Part shown: positions 6,972 through 21,134 of the stretch, piece by piece
Position numbering within the stretch: position 1 is the first letter of the stretch
How the letters are laid out: every line of letters begins with the position of its first letter
NCBI GenBank assembly: GCA_964349395.1
Contig: CAYGGA010000004.1
Span: 1 to 59,301 of the forward strand
Source of the DNA: an uncultured Gammaproteobacteria bacterium
Lineage (GTDB): Bacteria; Patescibacteriota; Microgenomatia; Woykebacterales; RBG-16-39-9b
Length of the DNA: 59,301 nucleotides
Reading direction: 5' to 3'
Made by a program: the position numbers and the translations under genes
Notes under the pieces: model-generated
What the model was told of the DNA's origin: nothing
The model's database searches: none
Seen by the model: only the letters and a program-made list of their open reading frames with translations

Positions 6972-9158
6972 CTAGCCCACCACTTCAAAGCTACTGCCAG
7001 TCGTATTTTTAGTGACTACAATTTGATTTGGGAATGCTTCTTTAAGTTCTTCCACATGAGTGACTACCAGAACTTTGGCATAATCATTTTTGATGGCATT
7101 GATAGCCTCAATCATCCGATCTCGACCTTCCGTGTCTTGAGTCCCAAACCCTTCATCAATGACTAAAAATTGCAGTTTTGCACCCGCCCTGTGAGTGAGT
7201 AATTTTGATAAAGCTAGTCTGATTGCAAAATTGACTCTAAACGCTTCTCCGCCTGAGTAGAGCTCATAAGGCCTACTGCCACTCTCATCTGAAATCACAA
7301 TATCCAATGTCTCTATAGTAGTGCCTGATTTTGCTTCTTTTTGGGTGACAAACTCTACTCGCATGCGCCCGTCAGTCAGTTTATCAAGCAGGGCATTAGC
7401 CTCAGCTTCAATCTCAGGAATGGCATTCTCGATAATCATCGCTTGAATACCTTTTTTACCAAAGGCTAAAGAAAGCTCTTCATAATCTTGTTTTTCCAAA
7501 GAAAGCCTATCTCTTTCTTTTATCTTAGTTTGCTTGAGAGTTTCTAACTGAGTGGACCTAGTTACTAGCTCCTTAGCTGCTCCCCTCTCTGATGTTTTCT
7601 CACTTTTTTGGGATCTAATTTGTTGTAAAATATTTTCTTTTTTCTGGTAATCATTTCTTAAATCTAAAAGTTGAGATTTGTATAAATCATAATCTTTTAA
7701 ATCTTCACTTTCTTTCTCAATTGTTTTTCCTCTCGCCACTAGCAGTGCTTCTAAATCTTTTAACCCTTTACTTTCTGTTTCAATCTTACCTTTGGCTTCT
7801 GATAGCTTTATCTTTAAAACATCATTTTCCCCTAGCTCCTCAATCTTCTTTTGAATCTCCTCATACTCACTAAACTCTTTTTTAAAAAGATTGATTTTTT
7901 CTTGCAGAGGAGGGATCTGCACTAAGACCCTATTTAGCTTTTTTTTCGCCTCAGTTTTTTCCACCAGGGTGTTTTTATAGTTGTTTCTTTCTTGGGCAAT
8001 CTTGTCACCAAATTCTTTCTGCAGGTGAGCTTGGGAATCTTTTTCCAATTTTTGTCCACAAGTTGGGCAAAGAGCATTATTTTTACCTGTTGTGGCTAAC
8101 TCTTTGGTTAATTTTTCTCCTCTTTCTTTGATTTCTAAAAGCTGACTCTCAATCACCGCTAGATTGCTTTTGTGATCTCCTTCTTCGGTGGTGAGCGCTA
8201 GCAGCTCTTGTTGGAGGGAATTGAGCTCCACTTGCTTTATCTGCCACTCTTTAGCTTTAGTTTTGAGCTCTTCTAAAAGCGAGGCATTTTTTTCAATTAT
8301 TTCTTCTTGGGCCAAAATAGTTTGGAAATCTTTCACCGAAATTTCTTTACTAGCTTTTTGGTTTTTTAAAGACTCAATCTCTTCCTTTAAAGACGCGATC
8401 CTTTCTTGCGCTTTCTCCAAAGTAGACACTTTAGTTCTCAAAAGTTCCCCTTGGGCTTGGATTTCTTTTAGTTTGGCCTCAGCTTCTTTCTCTTGAGCCT
8501 CAATGATTTTTAGCTCACTCTCAATTTGCGACAAAGTTACTTGCCGTTCTTCTTTTTCTCCCAGCTCATTATCTATTTCTACCAAACTATAATTTATTGC
8601 TTCGACATTCATCCCAAGAGCTTTAGCACTCTCTTTTGCCTTTTCTTCCAGGAAGTCGTATTTACTTAGGTTTAAAATCTCAGCTAAGATTCTTTTCCGA
8701 TCAGTTGCCCCTTTGACCGTAAACTCGTCCGCATTGCCTTGTCTCAAAAAAGAAGAATTAGTAAAAGTCTCATATGTCAGATGCAGTGTGTTAATGATTT
8801 TTTCTTGAGTTGATTTGATAGTGCCTTCGGTGAGATTTTTTTCTCCCCCGTAAAAATCCAGCCGGGTGAGCCCACCTCCTTTGAGAGTCCGACTTCTTAA
8901 GACTTTAAAAAGCTGGCCATCTAAGTCAAAACTGAACTCCACTTTCATTTCTTTACTTCCTTGTTTGACCAAACTATCGCTACTGTCACCAGCCCTGGAA
9001 GTACCCCAGACACACCACGTAATCGCATCTAACAAGGAGGATTTACCCGCCCCATTTCTCCCCGAGAGCACGGCGAGGTGGAAAGAGGAGAAATCTAGCG
9101 CCGGAGTATCTTCGCTATAACTAGTAAAATTGTGGAGTTTGAGGGAGACTGGGATCAT
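6972..9158 (-). CDS. sbcC: SbcC/Rad50-like SMC ATPase
   Basis: Walker A GRNGAGKSS, coiled coil with CPTCGQ zinc hook, YSGGE signature, Walker B LVIDEGFG. Confidence 0.93.
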   Translation of the reverse strand: MIPVSLKLHNFTSYSEDTPALDFSSFHLAVLSGRNGAGKSSLLDAITWCVWGTSRAGDSSDSLVKQGSKEMKVEFSFDLDGQLFKVLRSRTLKGGGLTRLDFYGGEKNLTEGTIKSTQEKIINTLHLTYETFTNSSFLRQGNADEFTVKGATDRKRILAEILNLSKYDFLEEKAKESAKALGMNVEAINYSLVEIDNELGEKEERQVTLSQIESELKIIEAQEKEAEAKLKEIQAQGELLRTKVSTLEKAQERIASLKEEIESLKNQKASKEISVKDFQTILAQEEIIEKNASLLEELKTKAKEWQIKQVELNSLQQELLALTTEEGDHKSNLAVIESQLLEIKERGEKLTKELATTGKNNALCPTCGQKLEKDSQAHLQKEFGDKIAQERNNYKNTLVEKTEAKKKLNRVLVQIPPLQEKINLFKKEFSEYEEIQKKIEELGENDVLKIKLSEAKGKIETESKGLKDLEALLVARGKTIEKESEDLKDYDLYKSQLLDLRNDYQKKENILQQIRSQKSEKTSERGAAKELVTRSTQLETLKQTKIKERDRLSLEKQDYEELSLAFGKKGIQAMIIENAIPEIEAEANALLDKLTDGRMRVEFVTQKEAKSGTTIETLDIVISDESGSRPYELYSGGEAFRVNFAIRLALSKLLTHRAGAKLQFLVIDEGFGTQDTEGRDRMIEAINAIKNDYAKVLVVTHVEELKEAFPNQIVVTKNTTGSSFEVVG

Positions 9159-10312
9159 GCTTCTCCCATGAGTTTCTGAGCCAAAGATTGCAAGTGAAGT
9201 AGGCGCTCTTTATTGAAGTTTTTACTCTCCAGATATTTCTGTAAGGCACTAGCGGGGTCAAGCTGTTCCACATTTTCCATACTGGCCACTCTTTTGGCCT
9301 GCAAAATATTACGGTGCACGCCCGCGACGAAAAAAGCATCTTTTAGACTAAGTCTGATTTTTTCCACATCCAGATCAATATTGCCATCTTGGGGTAGATC
9401 CACATTGATTTTAACGACACAGTCTTTAAGATTTTTTTCACTCAGAGCTTTTAAAACATCATCCGTGGGATGATCAGTACTTGCTTTGATATTAAAAGAG
9501 ATAAATCTCCTTGCATCTGTAGAAATAGTTTTATATTTAGTTTTAAATCCTCTACCCACAGGGGTAATATCAACATCAATAAAGACTTTATCTTCTTTTT
9601 CTTCCCCAAAATCGACTCTTTCGATGCTACCGGCATAAATCATTAGAGGTTCATGACTGATAACTTGATGTTGGTGGATATGGCCTAAGGCCACATATTG
9701 AATTTTGGGCGTTTTCCATGGCTCTTTATCCACGACTTGGTCACCACCAAGCATGACTAGCTGCTCAGACCCATATTTCGCCCCCGTCACGCTAGCATGG
9801 ATTACCCCAATGGCCGGTAAAGTCGGATCAATCTCAGAAATTAGTTTTTCTAGTCTTTCTCGGTATCCTTCGTGGTCTTTTCGAGATTGCCATGGAAAGC
9901 CCAAGACTTGGAGCTTGTCACCATTTTTCACTTCCACGGTTTGCAAAGAAAGTTCTCTGATCACGGTGGTGCGGGGAATTTCCATGACGGAATAAATATC
10001 TAAAGAATTAGCTTTACCAGCTGAATTGGGGGTATCGTGATTACCTACCAAAAGCACGGAAGGAATACCATTTTTGGATAATTTGAGGATTCTTTTTGCA
10101 AATTCGCGCTGTTGGGTGGGAGTAGGTTCTCTGGTTTTAAAAGCATCACCAGAGAAAACAAAAAGGTCAGCATTTTCAGCGATTGCATAATCAACGACTT
10201 TGTCATAAGCGCGCAGAAAGTCAGCTAGCCTCGTAGAGAGGCCAGTTTCGGGGTCAATTTTGCCATAATTTTCCACCCCAATATGAATGTCAGAAGTATG
10301 AATTAGTTTCAC
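9155..10312 (-). CDS. sbcD: SbcD/Mre11-like exonuclease
   Basis: SDIHIG, GDAF, GNHD and LGHIH metallophosphoesterase motifs; overlaps sbcC. Confidence 0.93.
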   Translation of the reverse strand: MKLIHTSDIHIGVENYGKIDPETGLSTRLADFLRAYDKVVDYAIAENADLFVFSGDAFKTREPTPTQQREFAKRILKLSKNGIPSVLLVGNHDTPNSAGKANSLDIYSVMEIPRTTVIRELSLQTVEVKNGDKLQVLGFPWQSRKDHEGYRERLEKLISEIDPTLPAIGVIHASVTGAKYGSEQLVMLGGDQVVDKEPWKTPKIQYVALGHIHQHQVISHEPLMIYAGSIERVDFGEEKEDKVFIDVDITPVGRGFKTKYKTISTDARRFISFNIKASTDHPTDDVLKALSEKNLKDCVVKINVDLPQDGNIDLDVEKIRLSLKDAFFVAGVHRNILQAKRVASMENVEQLDPASALQKYLESKNFNKERLLHLQSLAQKLMGEA

Positions 10313-10413
10313 CGTGTAATTATGTTAGTGAAAGTCAGCTTCATTGGCAAGCGTTCAAACTGGTTGTTAGGATAATTGGCCTAAGAGCCTTTCAGCTGCA
10401 AGGGCTTATAGCC

Positions 10414-10442
10414 TTGACATAGGCTTGGAAATATGTTATACT
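10414..10442 (+). promoter_or_regulatory. Near-consensus sigma70 promoter
   Basis: TTGACA-17 nt-TATACT with extended -10 TG. Confidence 0.8.
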
Positions 10443-10470
10443 ATAGGACAGTAAATTTGGGAGGGCAACT

Positions 10471-10656
10471 GTGGCTGACTTTTCCATCCTGACAGGTCCT
10501 GTTATCCGGCGCAAATCCGTGGACACTGTCGCCATCGGCGGCCAGTTGAGGGTACAGGCAAGGACAACCCCGCCCCAGTCCTACATCGCCAACGACGGGA
10601 CCCTCTGCACCAGCCGATCAGAAATGATCGACTACAACAGGGACCTCGGCCGCTAG
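10471..10656 (+). CDS. Small orphan protein (61 aa)
   Basis: GGGAGG SD 6 nt before GTG; downstream of a strong promoter; C/G-ending codons. Confidence 0.6.
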   Translation: MADFSILTGPVIRRKSVDTVAIGGQLRVQARTTPPQSYIANDGTLCTSRSEMIDYNRDLGR

Positions 10657-10734
10657 TTCGACCTCAGCCAAGGAGAGACACTTTGAAGTAACTATTCTTG
10701 AGTCTTTGCTTTCTTAGGTTGGACTAAGAAAAGT

Positions 10735-10773
10735 GGAGGTGTTTATTTGCCTAAACAGCAACTAAACACCTCC
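10735..10773 (+). terminator. Hairpin GGAGGTGTTTA...TAAACACCTCC
   Basis: 11-bp perfect inverted repeat after the small ORF, preceded by a second hairpin TTTCTTAG/CTAAGAAA; no clear U-tract. Confidence 0.45.
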
Positions 10774-10788
10774 CGAATCTTTCAAATT

Positions 10789-10863
10789 AATCTTCAGCAA
10801 TCTGCTTGAAGGCTAGAAAAACTTGGTGAAAGCCAGGTCCTTTCAGGCAGATTCTTGGAGGTT
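10789..10863 (+). ncRNA. Candidate structured RNA or leader: long stem, asymmetric internal loop, GAAA-capped hairpin
   Basis: AATCTTCAG/TTGGAGGTT and AATCTGCTTGAAGG/CCTTTCAGGCAGATT stems enclose CTTGGT-GAAA-GCCAGG; several G-U pairs favour the + strand. Confidence 0.45.
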
Positions 10864-10908
10864 AAATCCTTTCAAGAACAACCAAATAAACCAATTGGAG
10901 GAGATCTC

Positions 10909-11157
10909 GTGTCCACAACATTCATGGCTGAAGTCGGACGGTTGGTAGAGCTCTTCGAGCAGTACCCGCCGGAGGACCCAACGCTGAGCATCGACCAGAG
11001 CGAGAAGTACATTGAGTACTTCACGCATCAACCGCCCTGTCCCGAGAACCAGTCTCCATGGCTGCGCCTCGAACGCCTGATCGCCCTCCGCAACAAGACA
11101 ACGAGCGGCGGCAACGAGCGGTACGAAGGCAACAACTGGTGGTATCCCGGCCGTTAA
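10909..11157 (+). CDS. Small orphan protein (82 aa)
   Basis: GGAGGAG SD before GTG at 10909; GC3-rich codons unlike host genes. Confidence 0.65.
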   Translation: MSTTFMAEVGRLVELFEQYPPEDPTLSIDQSEKYIEYFTHQPPCPENQSPWLRLERLIALRNKTTSGGNERYEGNNWWYPGR

Positions 11158-11179
11158 CCCGAGAAACCGTCTATACCCA

Positions 11180-11218
11180 GGGGAAGTCTGTTTGACAGCA
11201 ATGTTCAACAGCTTCCCC
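11180..11218 (+). terminator. Hairpin with GCAA tetraloop
   Basis: GGGGAAG-T-CTG...GCAA...CAG-CTTCCCC directly after the ORF. Confidence 0.5.
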
Positions 11219-11223
11219 GCTAC

Positions 11224-11252
11224 TTTACCTTTAGGAAACTATTCACTAAAAT
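11224..11252 (+). promoter_or_regulatory. Putative sigma70 promoter
   Basis: TTTACC-17 nt-TAAAAT upstream of the 62-aa ORF. Confidence 0.45.
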
Positions 11253-11305
11253 GTGGCTAGTTTCTTGAGGGCAAAGCTCTTAAGAGTTTACTAAAGGAGA
11301 AGAAC

Positions 11306-11494
11306 TTGACCAGAATCAAATCCTGGTTACAGCGGGTTGGGGAGTGGTTCAAACCGCCTGCAGACATGAAGAAGTGGCGGATCAGGACCGACCCTTTCCA
11401 TCCCTTCCATCGACTCATCCCAAAGGACCATGAGGAGCTGGAAAGCCTTCATGTGAAGCACCGCCCAGATACCTACCCACCCGAGAAGGAGTAG
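11306..11494 (+). CDS. Small orphan His/Pro-rich protein (62 aa)
   Basis: AAAGGAG SD before TTG; GC3-rich codons. Confidence 0.6.
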   Translation: MTRIKSWLQRVGEWFKPPADMKKWRIRTDPFHPFHRLIPKDHEELESLHVKHRPDTYPPEKE

Positions 11495-11505
11495 TTGTCA
11501 CCACC

Positions 11506-11542
11506 GGAGGTTTGTTTACAACCTAGTTGTAGATAGGCCTCC
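11506..11542. terminator. G-U-rich 17-bp hairpin between convergent genes
   Basis: GGAGGTTTGTTTACAAC-CTA-GTTGTAGATAGGCCTCC pairs fully when G-U is allowed on the + strand. Confidence 0.6.
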
Positions 11543-11552
11543 AAAATTTTGC

Positions 11553-12440
11553 TCAGAAGGCACGATTGGCTAGCTGGAAAAGTGGACTCAATATTGGGTT
11601 GTAGACTTTTGTAAATGTCCCTACAGAGGTGAGAGTTTCCCCTCTAAACCCCTTTTTAAAATGACTAAATCCTTCCCAACTAGCAGTACTAGGAATTCTA
11701 CTATCTACAACCCCTTCTAAATCCAAGAATTTATACCCTCTTTTTTTAGAATCTTTTATTATCTCCCAAATCAAAGTGTAAGGAGCCAGGAATTCTCTTT
11801 TTTGTGCACTAGACCCAGCATAAAGATAATAGGCAGTTTTATCCCAATAGTAGACCATGGCGGTGGCCAGTGGGTCTTTGTCCAAGTAGGCTATAAAAAT
11901 CTGGGCCTTGTCCTTTTTGGAAAAAATTTCCCATCTTCTAGTTATATTTTTTTCTCCTTCAGTCCAAAATTTATTTCTCTTCGCAGTGGTCAGATAGAGT
12001 GGGTAAAAAGTATCAAAATCTTTACCTACCTCGACTCTCAAACCCGTTTTTTCTCCAAAACGGATGCTATAGCGAGTATCCTTTTCAAACCCCTTTAAAG
12101 TGTCTTCCAAGGGCTTAGAGAGGTCAATGCAGATAGTTTTAGTGGGGGCTAATGCCCATTTATCAGCGACAAAGCCACTCTTTTTAATATCTGGCAAAAT
12201 ATCATCCCCCACTGAAAAATCTGGCTCTAATTTGGCAAATAGGGAATTTTTCTCTTTAAAAAATTGGTTCGCTTGCTCAATATCTAAAGTACTATTAAAT
12301 CTTAAAATTTTGCTCAGGTGAATACCAAAAGTAGAAAAAGTGTAGGCATAGTGGTTTTGGTGTCTGTCTACTGCCCATCCCAAAGATTCCATATATTCAG
12401 CCCACAAGTCAGATTGTCGTAAGTCAGTATTAAGTAGCAT
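11553..12440 (-). CDS. FemABX-family peptidoglycan interpeptide bridge transferase
   Basis: QSDLWAEY...GW start, TRYSIR, YYLYAGS, WEIIKDSKKRGYKFLDLEG, FKKGFRG. Confidence 0.85.
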   Translation of the reverse strand: MLLNTDLRQSDLWAEYMESLGWAVDRHQNHYAYTFSTFGIHLSKILRFNSTLDIEQANQFFKEKNSLFAKLEPDFSVGDDILPDIKKSGFVADKWALAPTKTICIDLSKPLEDTLKGFEKDTRYSIRFGEKTGLRVEVGKDFDTFYPLYLTTAKRNKFWTEGEKNITRRWEIFSKKDKAQIFIAYLDKDPLATAMVYYWDKTAYYLYAGSSAQKREFLAPYTLIWEIIKDSKKRGYKFLDLEGVVDSRIPSTASWEGFSHFKKGFRGETLTSVGTFTKVYNPILSPLFQLANRAF

Positions 12441-19564: not shown

Positions 19565-20275
19565 TTAAAACTTCTTAAGGATATTTTTCTCTGCTCTTCT
19601 TTTGGCCCATTTGGGGGCAAAAAGATATGGATTGGCAATAAATAGCCCACCAAAGACAAGGGTGAAAGCAATCGCAATTAGAGTGACAGCCGAGTCATAA
19701 ATCCCCGAGTCAGGTAAAGCTGCCCCACTAGCAGTCGTGCCAGTATCCCCACCCCCAGTAGTAGTGGTTCCTGAGGCGGCTGCAGCAGAGATAGTGTAGC
19801 TGCCATTTTTCAGAGCGGTGAAATTTAAAACATCAGTGCTATCTGTGCTACTGATGACTCGGGAGTCAGAAGTAAAAGTCAGAGTCGAGGTACCAGCCTG
19901 TTTGGCGCGCAGATTTAGAGTGGCCACCAAACCATTGGTCCCAGTGTAACCATTACCGCTAGCTGCCCCAGTAATATGAATCGTGCCATTTAAATTATCC
20001 GGCTCATTTTCTGTAAAAATAGTGGCCACTGACCCAGAAGTGCTTATAGAGAGAACTTCTAAGACATTGGGATCAAAAGTAAGATAGGCTTTGATGGTAT
20101 TAACAGCTTCACCGGCAGTATTTACGCGGATCTCCACTGAGAAAAGGTTATCGACTTTTTTAGCGGCCGTCAGAGGGGATAAGTCTAAAGTAGCATTACC
20201 AACTGCTAGAGCGGGAGCAGCACTAAAAAGGGAAAGTATTAGTGAAAAAAGGACAGCAGTAAGTTTTTTCATCAT
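19565..20275 (-). CDS. Secreted cohesin-domain protein with LPxTG-like (LPDSG) sorting signal
   Basis: Signal peptide ending AxA; cohesin-like beta-sandwich (LTFDPNVLEV, ATLNLRAK); T/G linker; LPDSG-TM-basic tail. Confidence 0.78.
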   Translation of the reverse strand: MMKKLTAVLFSLILSLFSAAPALAVGNATLDLSPLTAAKKVDNLFSVEIRVNTAGEAVNTIKAYLTFDPNVLEVLSISTSGSVATIFTENEPDNLNGTIHITGAASGNGYTGTNGLVATLNLRAKQAGTSTLTFTSDSRVISSTDSTDVLNFTALKNGSYTISAAAASGTTTTGGGDTGTTASGAALPDSGIYDSAVTLIAIAFTLVFGGLFIANPYLFAPKWAKRRAEKNILKKF

Positions 20276-20372
20276 TGGCCTGTTTTACCTAGGCGCAGAA
20301 GTTTTCTTGCAAGAAAACTTCTCTTAATAAATATATCAGTCAGTATACTAAGTAGTCAAGCGGTGCCCTTTA

Positions 20373-21134
20373 CTACCGTTTGGATTTGAATAATCCTTCA
20401 AAGATCTTGAAGTCGGTTTGGTCGACTTGACCGTCTTTATTCAAATCAGCCGGAGAATTGGTTGTTTTGGTACCCATCACTTTAGAAAAAAGGTGCAAAT
20501 CTTGTTCATCTACTTTAGAATCTTTATTCAAATCAGCACTCAAACTAGCAGAGGGGGTACCCTCTTCCTTTGTACCATTGGCCCCTTCCACATTAAAAGT
20601 AGCTGACCTCATTGCCGTGAGAATATTTTGGGCACTGCCTTGCTCAGTAATTTTAGTCTCTCCTTCTACAAACTTTAAAGTTGCCGTTCCGTTTTTCTTA
20701 GCTTGGAGTTTAATAGTTCCAAAAACACCTGCCCCTTTAAAAGGAGTAAAACTATTAATTGATAAGTAAATCTTATTACCCTCAACTTTGTTGGCCAAAA
20801 TTAAAGGTTTATCAAAAAAGCTTCCGGGCTGAGTTTGAACTCCACCAATATCTCGCCTTTGATCAACCACAGAAAAAACGGTGTTATCAAAACTAATCAC
20901 ACTGTCACTACCAACAATACTTTTGCCATTGGTATTGAGAAGAATTTTTATTTCTACTTCTGCTCCTCTGACAATGGTGCCTGAACTTGGATCAAAGGAA
21001 AAAGAAGCTCCTTCGCTGTCGGCCTTTTTTCTTGGGTCTAAATTACCTTGGAGCAATAAAACAGTCAAAGGAATGGCAATAACTAACAAAATAAAAGTAA
21101 TGATTAAGAGTAATTTTCGCCGCGTAATAAGCAT
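20373..21134 (-). CDS. Cohesin plus dockerin domain protein
   Basis: N-terminal TM ending AIPLTV...DPRKKA; cohesin-like domain; duplicated Ca-binding loops DLNKDSKVDEQD and DLNKDGQVDQTD. Confidence 0.82.
   Translation of the reverse strand: MLITRRKLLLIITFILLVIAIPLTVLLLQGNLDPRKKADSEGASFSFDPSSGTIVRGAEVEIKILLNTNGKSIVGSDSVISFDNTVFSVVDQRRDIGGVQTQPGSFFDKPLILANKVEGNKIYLSINSFTPFKGAGVFGTIKLQAKKNGTATLKFVEGETKITEQGSAQNILTAMRSATFNVEGANGTKEEGTPSASLSADLNKDSKVDEQDLHLFSKVMGTKTTNSPADLNKDGQVDQTDFKIFEGLFKSKR

Follow-up and report, generated by a model that had tools for sequence, protein, structure and literature searches.

The window analyzed here, a stretch of 59,301 nucleotides (nt) from an uncultured bacterium assigned to the Patescibacteriota (contig CAYGGA010000004.1 of assembly GCA_964349395.1), carries at positions 10414-11542 an island of three very small open reading frames (ORFs) set among strong hairpins. 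We see about an even chance that this island is a single, long-resident operon of three micro-cistrons, whose intercistronic hairpins would act at the RNA level in processing, stabilization, or translation control. An extended -10 promoter at 10414-10442 would drive one transcript ending at a hairpin at 11506-11542, and this transcript would comprise three micro-cistrons of 61, 82, and 62 amino acids (aa) parted by long structured RNA spacers, each spacer closing with a conserved hairpin of about 22 bp some 30-40 nt (28-40) before the next start. The conserved hairpins may be cut or bound, as RNase III-type processing sites and/or as 5'/3' stabilizers, and each micro-cistron would thus form an mRNA segment that is protected and can be tuned independently of the others. 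The small proteins themselves may be fast-evolving accessory factors, with the ORFs between the conserved hairpins presumably turning over fast through divergence or replacement.

The three ORFs all lie on the forward strand, flanked on one side by the start of an sbcD-like gene and on the other by the 3' end of a gene of the FemAB family (femAB), and each begins at a non-ATG codon closely preceded by a Shine-Dalgarno (SD) site. Their properties, including GC content at third codon positions (GC3) and isoelectric point (pI), are as follows:

10471-10656, forward strand: ORF1, 61 aa, GTG start, GC3 0.774, basic (pI 9.2), hydrophilic
10909-11157, forward strand: ORF2, 82 aa, GTG start, GC3 0.771, acidic (pI 4.9)
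11306-11494, forward strand: ORF3, 62 aa, TTG start, GC3 0.698, basic (pI 9.5), rich in Pro, His, and Trp
10459-10465, forward strand: SD site of ORF1, GGGAGGG, 5 nt before the GTG
10897-10903, forward strand: SD site of ORF2, GGAGGAG, 5 nt before the GTG
11293-11299, forward strand: SD site of ORF3, AAAGGAG, 6 nt before the TTG

Third-position composition separates these ORFs from their surroundings: GC3 is 0.70-0.77 in ORF1-3, versus 0.36 in sbcD, 0.358 in femAB, 0.366 in sbcC, and 0.427 in uvrD, and the genome-wide mean is 0.405 (standard deviation 0.070; 588 ORFs of at least 200 aa). The island's four spacers have a GC content of 0.40-0.43. GC is distributed non-uniformly over codon positions in ORF1, ORF2, and ORF3 (chi-square p 0.0054, 4.1e-5, and 0.0027, respectively), and the position-3 maximum falls in the frame of the ORF in all three; likewise, a codon model built from 34 other GC3-rich ORFs of the genome placed the forward frame at the top each time, with 8.8, 15.9, and 10.3 bits. 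The ORF bodies do not fold in excess of expectation (z +0.90, -1.76, -0.51, +1.32, -1.41, and -1.10). An open frame by itself is weak coding evidence here, because the given frame stayed open in 16% (ORF1), 7% (ORF2), and 8% (ORF3) of mononucleotide shuffles.

ORF2 is the member of the trio with protein homologs. An exhaustive phmmer search of 1.84 billion representative sequences matched it to P0003 (101 aa, E 5.6e-10, 54% identity) and P0004 (103 aa, E 3.3e-6), both singletons on short metagenome contigs, and the residues of a C-terminal motif, SPWxRxE ... GGNERxE ... W..P, are invariant across the three proteins (alignment A1). The ORF2 frame is also open from a TTG at 10855, which would give 100 aa; since the P0003 N-terminus (MPTTFMGEVG) matches that of ORF2 as read from GTG 10909 (MSTTFMAEVG), we favor this start over both the upstream TTG and the ATG of the gene caller. 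A third candidate, the 1515-aa repeat protein P0002, was judged spurious, only one repeated 23-residue stretch being aligned. The alignment led to no related loci in the genome_contigs or metagenome_contigs collections, and an AlphaFold model from the three sequences had a mean pLDDT of 50.7. The last 22 residues of ORF2 are shared with an 1138-aa orphan encoded elsewhere in the genome (hhalign probability 87% over 22 columns; hmmsearch E 2.5e-4). This orphan, at C23:7559-10975 (L011 4063-7476, reverse strand), is itself GC3-rich, holds the GGNER ... WWWPG motif in common with ORF2, and drew no match in Pfam, PHROGs, 300 genomes of the class, genome_contigs, or viral_contigs. In these labels and those below, C denotes contigs of the source genome (G000, with the window on contig C4), other G labels denote relative genomes, and L denotes extracted loci.

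Searches with the other two ORFs were less productive: neither ORF1 nor ORF3 has a word-level homolog, and neither was ever called as a gene in a set of 5.8 billion proteins. Pfam, PHROGs, NCBIfam, and PADLOC offered no family for any of the three, and no homologs were found in 400 genomes of the class. ORF1 weakly resembles the first micro-ORF of a corresponding unit in the relative G002 (BLASTP E 0.002 in a single comparison, with 60 of 5000 shuffles scoring as high), and its comparison with a G010 micro-ORF was not significant (798 of 5000 shuffles). Hydropathy averages (GRAVY) are negative throughout, at -0.34, -0.94, and -1.27 for ORF1, ORF2, and ORF3, and the highest-scoring 19-residue Kyte-Doolittle windows (0.69, 0.25, and -0.62) indicate no membrane segment; the products are hydrophilic and probably cytoplasmic.

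These results bear on whether the island is mainly a non-coding RNA locus, with the conserved hairpins as its product and ORF1 and ORF3 untranslated. The absence of both ORFs from the 5.8-billion-protein collection would fit such a locus, as would the frequency of comparable open frames in GC-rich sequence (7-16% per given frame) and the fact that only the RNA motif is conserved across genera. We nonetheless think it unlikely, since all three frames coincide with a GC3 maximum, an SD site at 5-6 nt, and a start codon, the ORF bodies are unstructured, and ORF2 has protein homologs; moreover, SD-led GC3-rich micro-ORFs occupy the same position in relatives, one family of them clearly conserved.

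Transcription of the proposed operon would start from a single strong promoter:

10414-10442, forward strand: sigma-70-type promoter, TTGACA-17-TATACT, matching at 11 of 12 positions, with a TG extension

An ATAG sits 2 nt upstream of its -35 hexamer (10408-10442). The island region holds six promoter-like sites, versus 1.1 ± 1.1 in shuffled sequence; a promoter scan found none before ORF2, and a putative second promoter at 11224-11252 matches at 9 of 12 positions and is located within a conserved hairpin. The same promoter design is repeated at a sister operon on contig C6 and at the syntenic units of G002, G402, G005, and G018, and a CTATAG-TTGACA arrangement heads the units of G002, G402, and G018. 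Among 114 genes with an intergenic TTGAC-N17-20-TANNNT at most 250 nt upstream, 24 of which are GC3-rich, 8 of those 24 have ATAG 1-4 nt upstream of the -35 hexamer, versus 5 of the 90 others (Fisher p 8e-4), an enrichment we treat as a lead only because the motif was chosen after examples had been seen.

Between and after the ORFs (the gaps are 252 nt from ORF1 to ORF2 and 148 nt from ORF2 to ORF3), the island is occupied by six or seven strong hairpins. The principal ones are listed with the folding z-scores of the segments that contain them, obtained with 200 shuffles per segment:

10657-10723, forward strand: hairpin A, beginning at the base after the ORF1 stop codon (segment 10657-10790, z -4.80)
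10735-10773, forward strand: hairpin B, arms of 16 nt with 94% complementarity, GGAGG in the 5' arm, and a weak U-rich tail (segment 10725-10785, z -6.87)
10784-10868, forward strand: hairpin C, copy 1 of the conserved motif, core AAUCUGCU ... AGCAGAUU, 72.6 bits, ending 40 nt before the ORF2 start
11180-11218, forward strand: hairpin D, a GC-rich base and then a partly U-rich stretch (segment 11158-11305, z -5.19)
11221-11277, forward strand: copy 2 of the conserved motif, shorter and with compensatory changes, E 1.1e-6, 61.6 bits, ending 28 nt before the ORF3 start
11506-11542, forward strand: terminal 17-bp hairpin, followed by AAAAUUUUG (segment 11495-11552, z -5.95; frequency of the minimum free energy structure in the ensemble 0.88)

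Segment 10780-10910 gave z -4.69, and in none of the five spacer segments did any of the 200 shuffles fold as well as the native sequence. Hairpin C has a GAAA apical loop, and G-U pairs are present among the island hairpins. The terminal hairpin is likely the end of the unit, facing the 3' end of the convergent femAB gene; a simple terminator scan of the island returned no sites.

An earlier note on this DNA, made from the sequence alone, had described much of this architecture, and its descriptive parts hold: three micro-ORFs with SD motifs 5-6 nt before GTG, GTG, and TTG starts, a codon style distinct from that of the host (GC3 0.70-0.77 versus 0.36-0.43 in flanking genes), a near-perfect promoter (11 of 12), at least five hairpins with G-U pairs or GNRA loops (z -4.69 to -6.87, with a GAAA loop), and no recognizable family, now extended to Pfam, PHROGs, NCBIfam, PADLOC, and Rfam. 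The second promoter it proposed, at 11224-11252, is weak and embedded in a conserved hairpin. Its view that the ORFs are independently expressed fares poorly for related reasons: the single strong promoter precedes ORF1, none precedes ORF2, and the site before ORF3 is the one inside the hairpin.

The hairpin that closes each spacer is a motif of about 70 nt with four copies in the genome (nhmmer E 3e-14 to 1.1e-6), two in the island and two in the C6 operon; the remaining nhmmer matches were antisense to these four or had E of at least 2. In an alignment of eight copies from four genomes, RNAalifold predicted 22 pairs, 15 of them with compensatory changes on both sides. Of the alignment cells, 91.4% were paired, versus 71.4 ± 2.2 in column shuffles (none of 500 reached the observed value), and pairing dropped to 30-52% when the 3' partner columns were slid by 1-3. 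These pairing counts are inflated and to some extent circular, since a structure-aware model supplied four of the eight copies; the conserved core AAYCUGSU ... ASCAGAUU and the places where the copies lie in the genome are independent of this. In most copies several of the pairs are G-U, and scores fall to about 25-28 bits on the antisense strand, versus 62-80 on the sense strand. Together, the G-U pairs and the weaker antisense scores point to a motif acting in sense-strand RNA, not in double-stranded DNA.

Searching Rfam with 10200-11700 up to E 10 returned four chance-level matches (13.5-19.1 bits versus gathering scores of 40-117). The predicted hairpin motif is previously undescribed, and it is conserved across the family. 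Its consensus duplex of 22-23 pairs, roughly two helical turns, fits an imperfect duplex of the RNase III type, and the genome contains an RNase III domain gene (C2:55515-55904, 136 bits versus a cut-off of 35) as well as genes for RNase J and RNase Y. Pattern searches elsewhere were uninformative: a gapped motif pattern matched eight genome_contigs entries over unrelated phyla and one viral entry, which we took as chance (about four expected, by estimate), and a hairpin-B stem pattern, which had no match in viral contigs, matched in metagenome_contigs two palindromes that are terminator-like and unrelated. At the DNA level, the island yielded only two chance-level short matches against 60 relatives, and its spacer only short matches against 400 genomes of the class (per-genome E 4e-5 to 0.01).

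Evidence for long residence comes from relatives. With covariance model R2 (E at most 0.05), the motif was found in 8 of the family's 16 other genomes, in the single scanned genome of another family (f3), and in 1 of 22 genomes from the remaining families. It adjoins the femAB 3' end in five genomes (G005, G002, G015, G012, and G008), in three of them (G015, G012, and G008) abutting that end or lying within about 170 nt of it, and in G010, G016, and G003 it follows the apparent end of a helicase-nuclease gene, as read by eye. The uvrD-femAB gene order is retained in the closest of the relatives identified through UvrD. On the other flank, a search of 16 family genomes at E 1e-10 did not recover the sbcD-like gene, which is therefore unusable as a synteny marker. 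The genes that border the island in the window, and the one that adjoins the unit in relatives, are:

9155-10312, reverse strand: sbcD-like gene, its start facing the left side of the island
11553-12440, reverse strand: femAB, its 3' end bordering the island, convergent with the island unit
L128 4815-7757, L129 6433-9369, and L142 4602-7703: helicase-nuclease gene adjoining the unit in relatives

Where the window has sbcC and sbcD (6972-10312), relatives have instead a UvrD-type helicase of about 980-1030 aa with a PD-(D/E)XK nuclease domain.

What the relatives carry at this site resembles the island in layout. Directly after femAB, G002 (= G401) has a TTGACA-17-TATAGT promoter behind CCTATAG and a GTG-start, GC-rich micro-ORF of 31 aa, continuing with about 350 nt of hairpins that include a motif copy and then an SD-led, GTG-start, GC-rich ORF of 295 aa; the unit of G402 is similar, its micro-ORF being 54 aa long. 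The 1.25-kb helicase-nuclease-femAB interval of G005 contains the promoter, a micro-ORF of 57 aa, a motif copy, an ORF of 112 aa, and a terminator, and in G018 a motif copy lies within a 5' leader. The homologous loci hold no recognizable copies of ORF1-3, with no similarity at the protein or DNA level, and the island matched nothing in the DNA of the genomes behind loci L042-L046, but the homologous loci do hold intact SD-led GC3-rich micro-ORFs on the motif strand, upstream of the motif. Three of these form one family, with 36-44% identity over about 57 aa across three genera:

L142:8086-8256, forward strand; L145:312-476, forward strand; L150:1767-1937, reverse strand: micro-protein family of 55-57 aa in G005, G015, and G008, consensus ... 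GCTxRQQHHxAIYRLRLDTGE ...

Its members have an SD site and GC3 0.74-0.79 in two of the three, and the family was found in only 3 of the 40 genomes searched; alignments A6 and A7 gave no further members in 40 genomes. Comparison with ORF1 and ORF3 gave nothing; a resemblance of its sequences to the ORF2 N-terminus, noticed by eye, was rejected (hhalign probability 0.07%, no BLASTP alignment). The first micro-ORFs of G002 and G010 are mutually related (0 of 5000 shuffles scored as high). Since the promoter-hairpin scaffold stands at the same locus in other genera, the locus is old, and a shared scaffold with differing ORFs argues that the scaffold is inherited and that the coding content diverges or gets replaced quickly. 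On these comparisons, the non-coding scaffold is vertically inherited and the ORFs between the hairpins are lineage-specific.

Conserved RNA around poorly conserved ORFs could alternatively mark a regulatory leader. ORF1, perhaps with the others, would then be a sensor: a ribosome at the ORF1 stop codon would determine which of several alternative folds hairpins A, B, and C adopt, and this fold would control downstream read-through or translation, with the peptide sequence of little importance. The placement of hairpin A right after the ORF1 stop, the terminator-like form of hairpin B, and the arrangement in relatives, where the same promoter leads into a short first ORF (26-57 aa) with a long stretch of structured RNA after it, would all agree with this. 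It sits badly with the length of ORF1, since 61 aa is long for a leader peptide, and with the conservation of residues along the entire length of ORF2 and of the G005/G015/G008 family; no mutually exclusive alternative folds were identified, and little is left to regulate in G012, G008, and G015 because only the femAB end follows the motif there. We accord a leader role a low probability.

The operon has a sister within the same genome:

C6:11291-13745 (L005 2292-4745), reverse strand: sister operon with the same promoter and leader, TTGACAT ... TGcTATACTATAGG

It contains four GC3-rich orphan ORFs of 146, 132, 42 (CxxC ... CxxC), and 311 aa, separated by multi-hairpin (three-hairpin) spacers with motif copies before the second and third ORFs, and is flanked by genes that we named by eye from their translations as penicillin-binding-protein-like and DprA-like. 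Cys-rich, GC3-rich ORFs with repeated CxxC pairs occur both here (42 and 311 aa; L005 2292-3441, reverse strand) and in the G002 unit (295 aa; L128 3272-4159, reverse strand).

Beyond these two operons, GC3-rich ORFs form a dispersed class in a genome of 952,772 bases (35 contigs, GC 0.425, rated 100% complete). GC3 reaches 0.60 in 42 of 1079 non-overlapping ORFs and 0.55 in 8.2%; such ORFs are scattered over many contigs in groups of 1-5, many of them behind consensus-like promoters (examples: C15:1376-8830, C5:24363-26213, C13:11292-14644, C23:7559-10975, C1:101867-103324, and C9:8094-11399). None of the 18 GC3-rich ORFs tested (124-1138 aa) reached a Pfam cut-off, one giving a sub-threshold match, versus a Pfam family in 17 of 18 GC3-poor controls (the first 18 such ORFs of the window, 120-850 aa). 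Codon bias from high expression was ruled out as the cause, GC3 being 0.34 in EF-Tu, 0.35 in EF-G, and 0.44 in GroEL. A second conserved intergenic hairpin, CTTAAGCCTGCAA ... TTGTTGGTTTAAGG, recurs in the C15 and C5 islands, where it precedes four or more GC3-rich ORFs (L008, from C15, at about 7640-7660 and 8140-8170, reverse strand; on C5, upstream of 24809 and 26213), and these two islands have a paralogous first gene and leader in common.

The earlier note suggested independently expressed small-protein units, such as horizontally acquired effectors or toxin-like modules under RNA control, and the corresponding rival reading is of three units gained recently by horizontal transfer. GC3 of 0.70-0.77, far off the genome norm, speaks for acquisition, as do the lack of homologs among 400 genomes of the class, the absence of Pfam families among the tested members of the wider GC3-rich class (0 of 18 versus 17 of 18 controls), and the presence of different ORFs at the same site in relatives. 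Recent transfer nevertheless fits poorly because the promoter-hairpin scaffold is conserved at the same locus across genera; the spacers are host-like in GC, and only one strong promoter is present. The toxin-like part finds little in its favor either: the peptides are hydrophilic with no membrane segment, unlike the small hydrophobic, membrane-active peptides of type I toxin-antitoxin systems, and for type II or known defense systems ORF1-3 drew no Pfam, NCBIfam, or PADLOC match and have gaps of 148-252 nt, unlike toxin-antitoxin pairs. We therefore place little weight on independent, horizontal, toxin-like units. What stands of the note is that SD-led small-protein genes are embedded in RNA structure, and its appeal to homologous loci is answered in two ways, with no recognizable copies of the ORFs but with other intact SD-led GC3-rich micro-ORFs in their place. 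The quick turnover and small size of the proteins would suit an accessory or conflict-related role.

Unrelated ORFs between homologous hairpins, seen here, on C6, and in relatives, would also be expected of a cassette array in which the hairpins are recombination sites (attC-like or another single-strand type) and ORF units are swapped between them, because swapping would leave conserved hairpins around unrelated ORFs. Assembled reads give this a faint hint. A contig of run X5 joins 10865 to 11223, dropping the ORF2 unit precisely between the two motif copies, but its shorter side is 27 nt, and this joint, like one at 10857-11712 in run X4 (side of 20 nt), falls below the mark of reliability. 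Otherwise, assembled contigs from three other samples of the same study, which are not source-independent, span the island junctions with zero differences. A run of another study yielded a 151-nt contig that matches spacer 10687-10837 with 3 differences and a second contig that tracks the first 33 nt of ORF2 and then diverges. Several observations tell against cassettes. Across copies, the attC core boxes (RYYYAAC ... GTTRRRY) are not maintained: of the eight, copy 1 alone has GTTAAAT, at its 3' end, a single C6 copy has ATCTAAC, at its 5' end, and none has both. The three Phage_integrase-domain (tyrosine recombinase) genes lie on C12, C7, and C17, with none in the window; the G-U pairs, together with the asymmetry between strands, are in line with an RNA element; each of the ORFs is preceded by an SD site of its own; and in G018 the motif is found in a 5' leader as well. 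A cassette array is, in our judgment, very improbable.

The favored operon, with hairpins acting in RNA, has difficulties of its own, and several observations weigh against it. Transcription, processing, and translation of the island are all inferred. The codon model rates the antisense frames of ORF2 and ORF3 nearly as high as the forward frames, and ORF1 and ORF3 have no convincing homolog. Hairpins B and D are terminator-like, and efficient termination at them would demand promoters for ORF2 and ORF3 that were not found. Half of the copies behind the covariation counts (four of eight) came from the structure-aware model, and GC3-rich ORFs inside a host-like, vertically conserved scaffold are left unaccounted for.

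A bolder extension, which we consider rather improbable, is that the island belongs to a family-specific expression platform: a conserved promoter and repeated hairpins at one fixed locus and a few satellites, through which GC3-rich micro-genes would be exchanged or rewritten fast. If so, hypervariable small proteins with their own codon style, perhaps engaged in host or phage dealings, would be served by a cassette-like system in which many hairpins display a perfect anti-16S sequence in the loop. More generally, small proteins and cis-acting RNAs of the candidate phyla radiation (CPR) are almost unmapped, and in the portions of the literature on CPR/Patescibacteria genomic islands, small proteins, and codon usage available to us we found no description of such units. 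A covarying RNA motif can enter RNA family libraries and serve to find further units; a fixed locus with differing SD-led micro-ORFs in relatives makes small-gene turnover testable; and the island links to a wider GC3-rich class without known families, about 8% of the ORFs of the genome at GC3 of at least 0.55. Should the hairpins prove to be processing or stabilizing sites, they would offer a first handle on the control of mRNA decay in these uncultured organisms. As a separate observation on the window, two neighboring reverse-strand ORFs at 19568-21134 match the Cohesin and Dockerin_1 domains (E 2.7e-10 and 1.2e-8), a notable pairing for a genome of 0.95 Mb.

Among known systems, the early operon of phage T7 offers a close parallel: a strong host-type promoter reads small genes parted by hairpins that RNase III cuts and that protect the mRNA ends. 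The island likewise has a strong promoter and several small genes with long imperfect hairpins between them, its duplex of 22-23 pairs is of suitable length, and an rnc gene is present. Unlike the T7 operon, the island is chromosomal, occupies one locus in a bacterial family, and has no phage genes nearby; its hairpin core is unrelated in sequence to the T7 sites, and cleavage here is only predicted. The cip-cel operon of Clostridium cellulolyticum, in the work of Xu et al. from 2015, reportedly uses intergenic stem-loops for selective RNA processing and stabilization. In both cases, stem-loops separate the cistrons of an operon and would determine how abundant each mRNA segment is. The cistrons of the island, however, are micro-ORFs, and its stem-loop is conserved in sequence and recurs as a motif both inside one operon and from one operon to another.

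Integron cassettes, including clusters of attC sites lacking an integrase (CALIN), carry small, mostly uncharacterized ORFs in one orientation between conserved imperfect hairpins, the ORFs being variable. The island shares the small same-orientation ORFs of no known family between conserved imperfect hairpins, but it has no conserved AAC/GTT core boxes and no neighboring integrase, its signals (G-U pairs, strand asymmetry) are of the RNA type, and its promoter sits directly before the first ORF. Mobile elements also carry clusters of small orphan genes behind strong promoters, as in anti-defense and moron loci. Small hydrophilic orphans, atypical composition, rapid turnover between relatives, and a strong promoter recall such loci; the absence of mobile-element genes nearby, the fixed chromosomal locus of the scaffold, and the lack of any PHROG match for ORF1-3 do not.

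The remaining comparison is with ribosome-bound 5' stabilizers of Gram-positive mRNAs, as they appear in the available text of PMC5737220, and with STAB-SD (Agaisse and Lereclus 1996, as cited in the available text of PMC7509114). The two motif copies of the window differ from STAB-SD in that neither has GGAGG in its loop, the GGAGG lying instead in the 5' arm of the hairpin B stem. Across the family, a perfect SD-like sequence (AAAGGAGGUGA) with no start codon behind it occupies the apical part of 8 of 14 motif copies, GGAGG lying in their central part, which recalls such stabilizers; the source genome encodes both RNase J and RNase Y.

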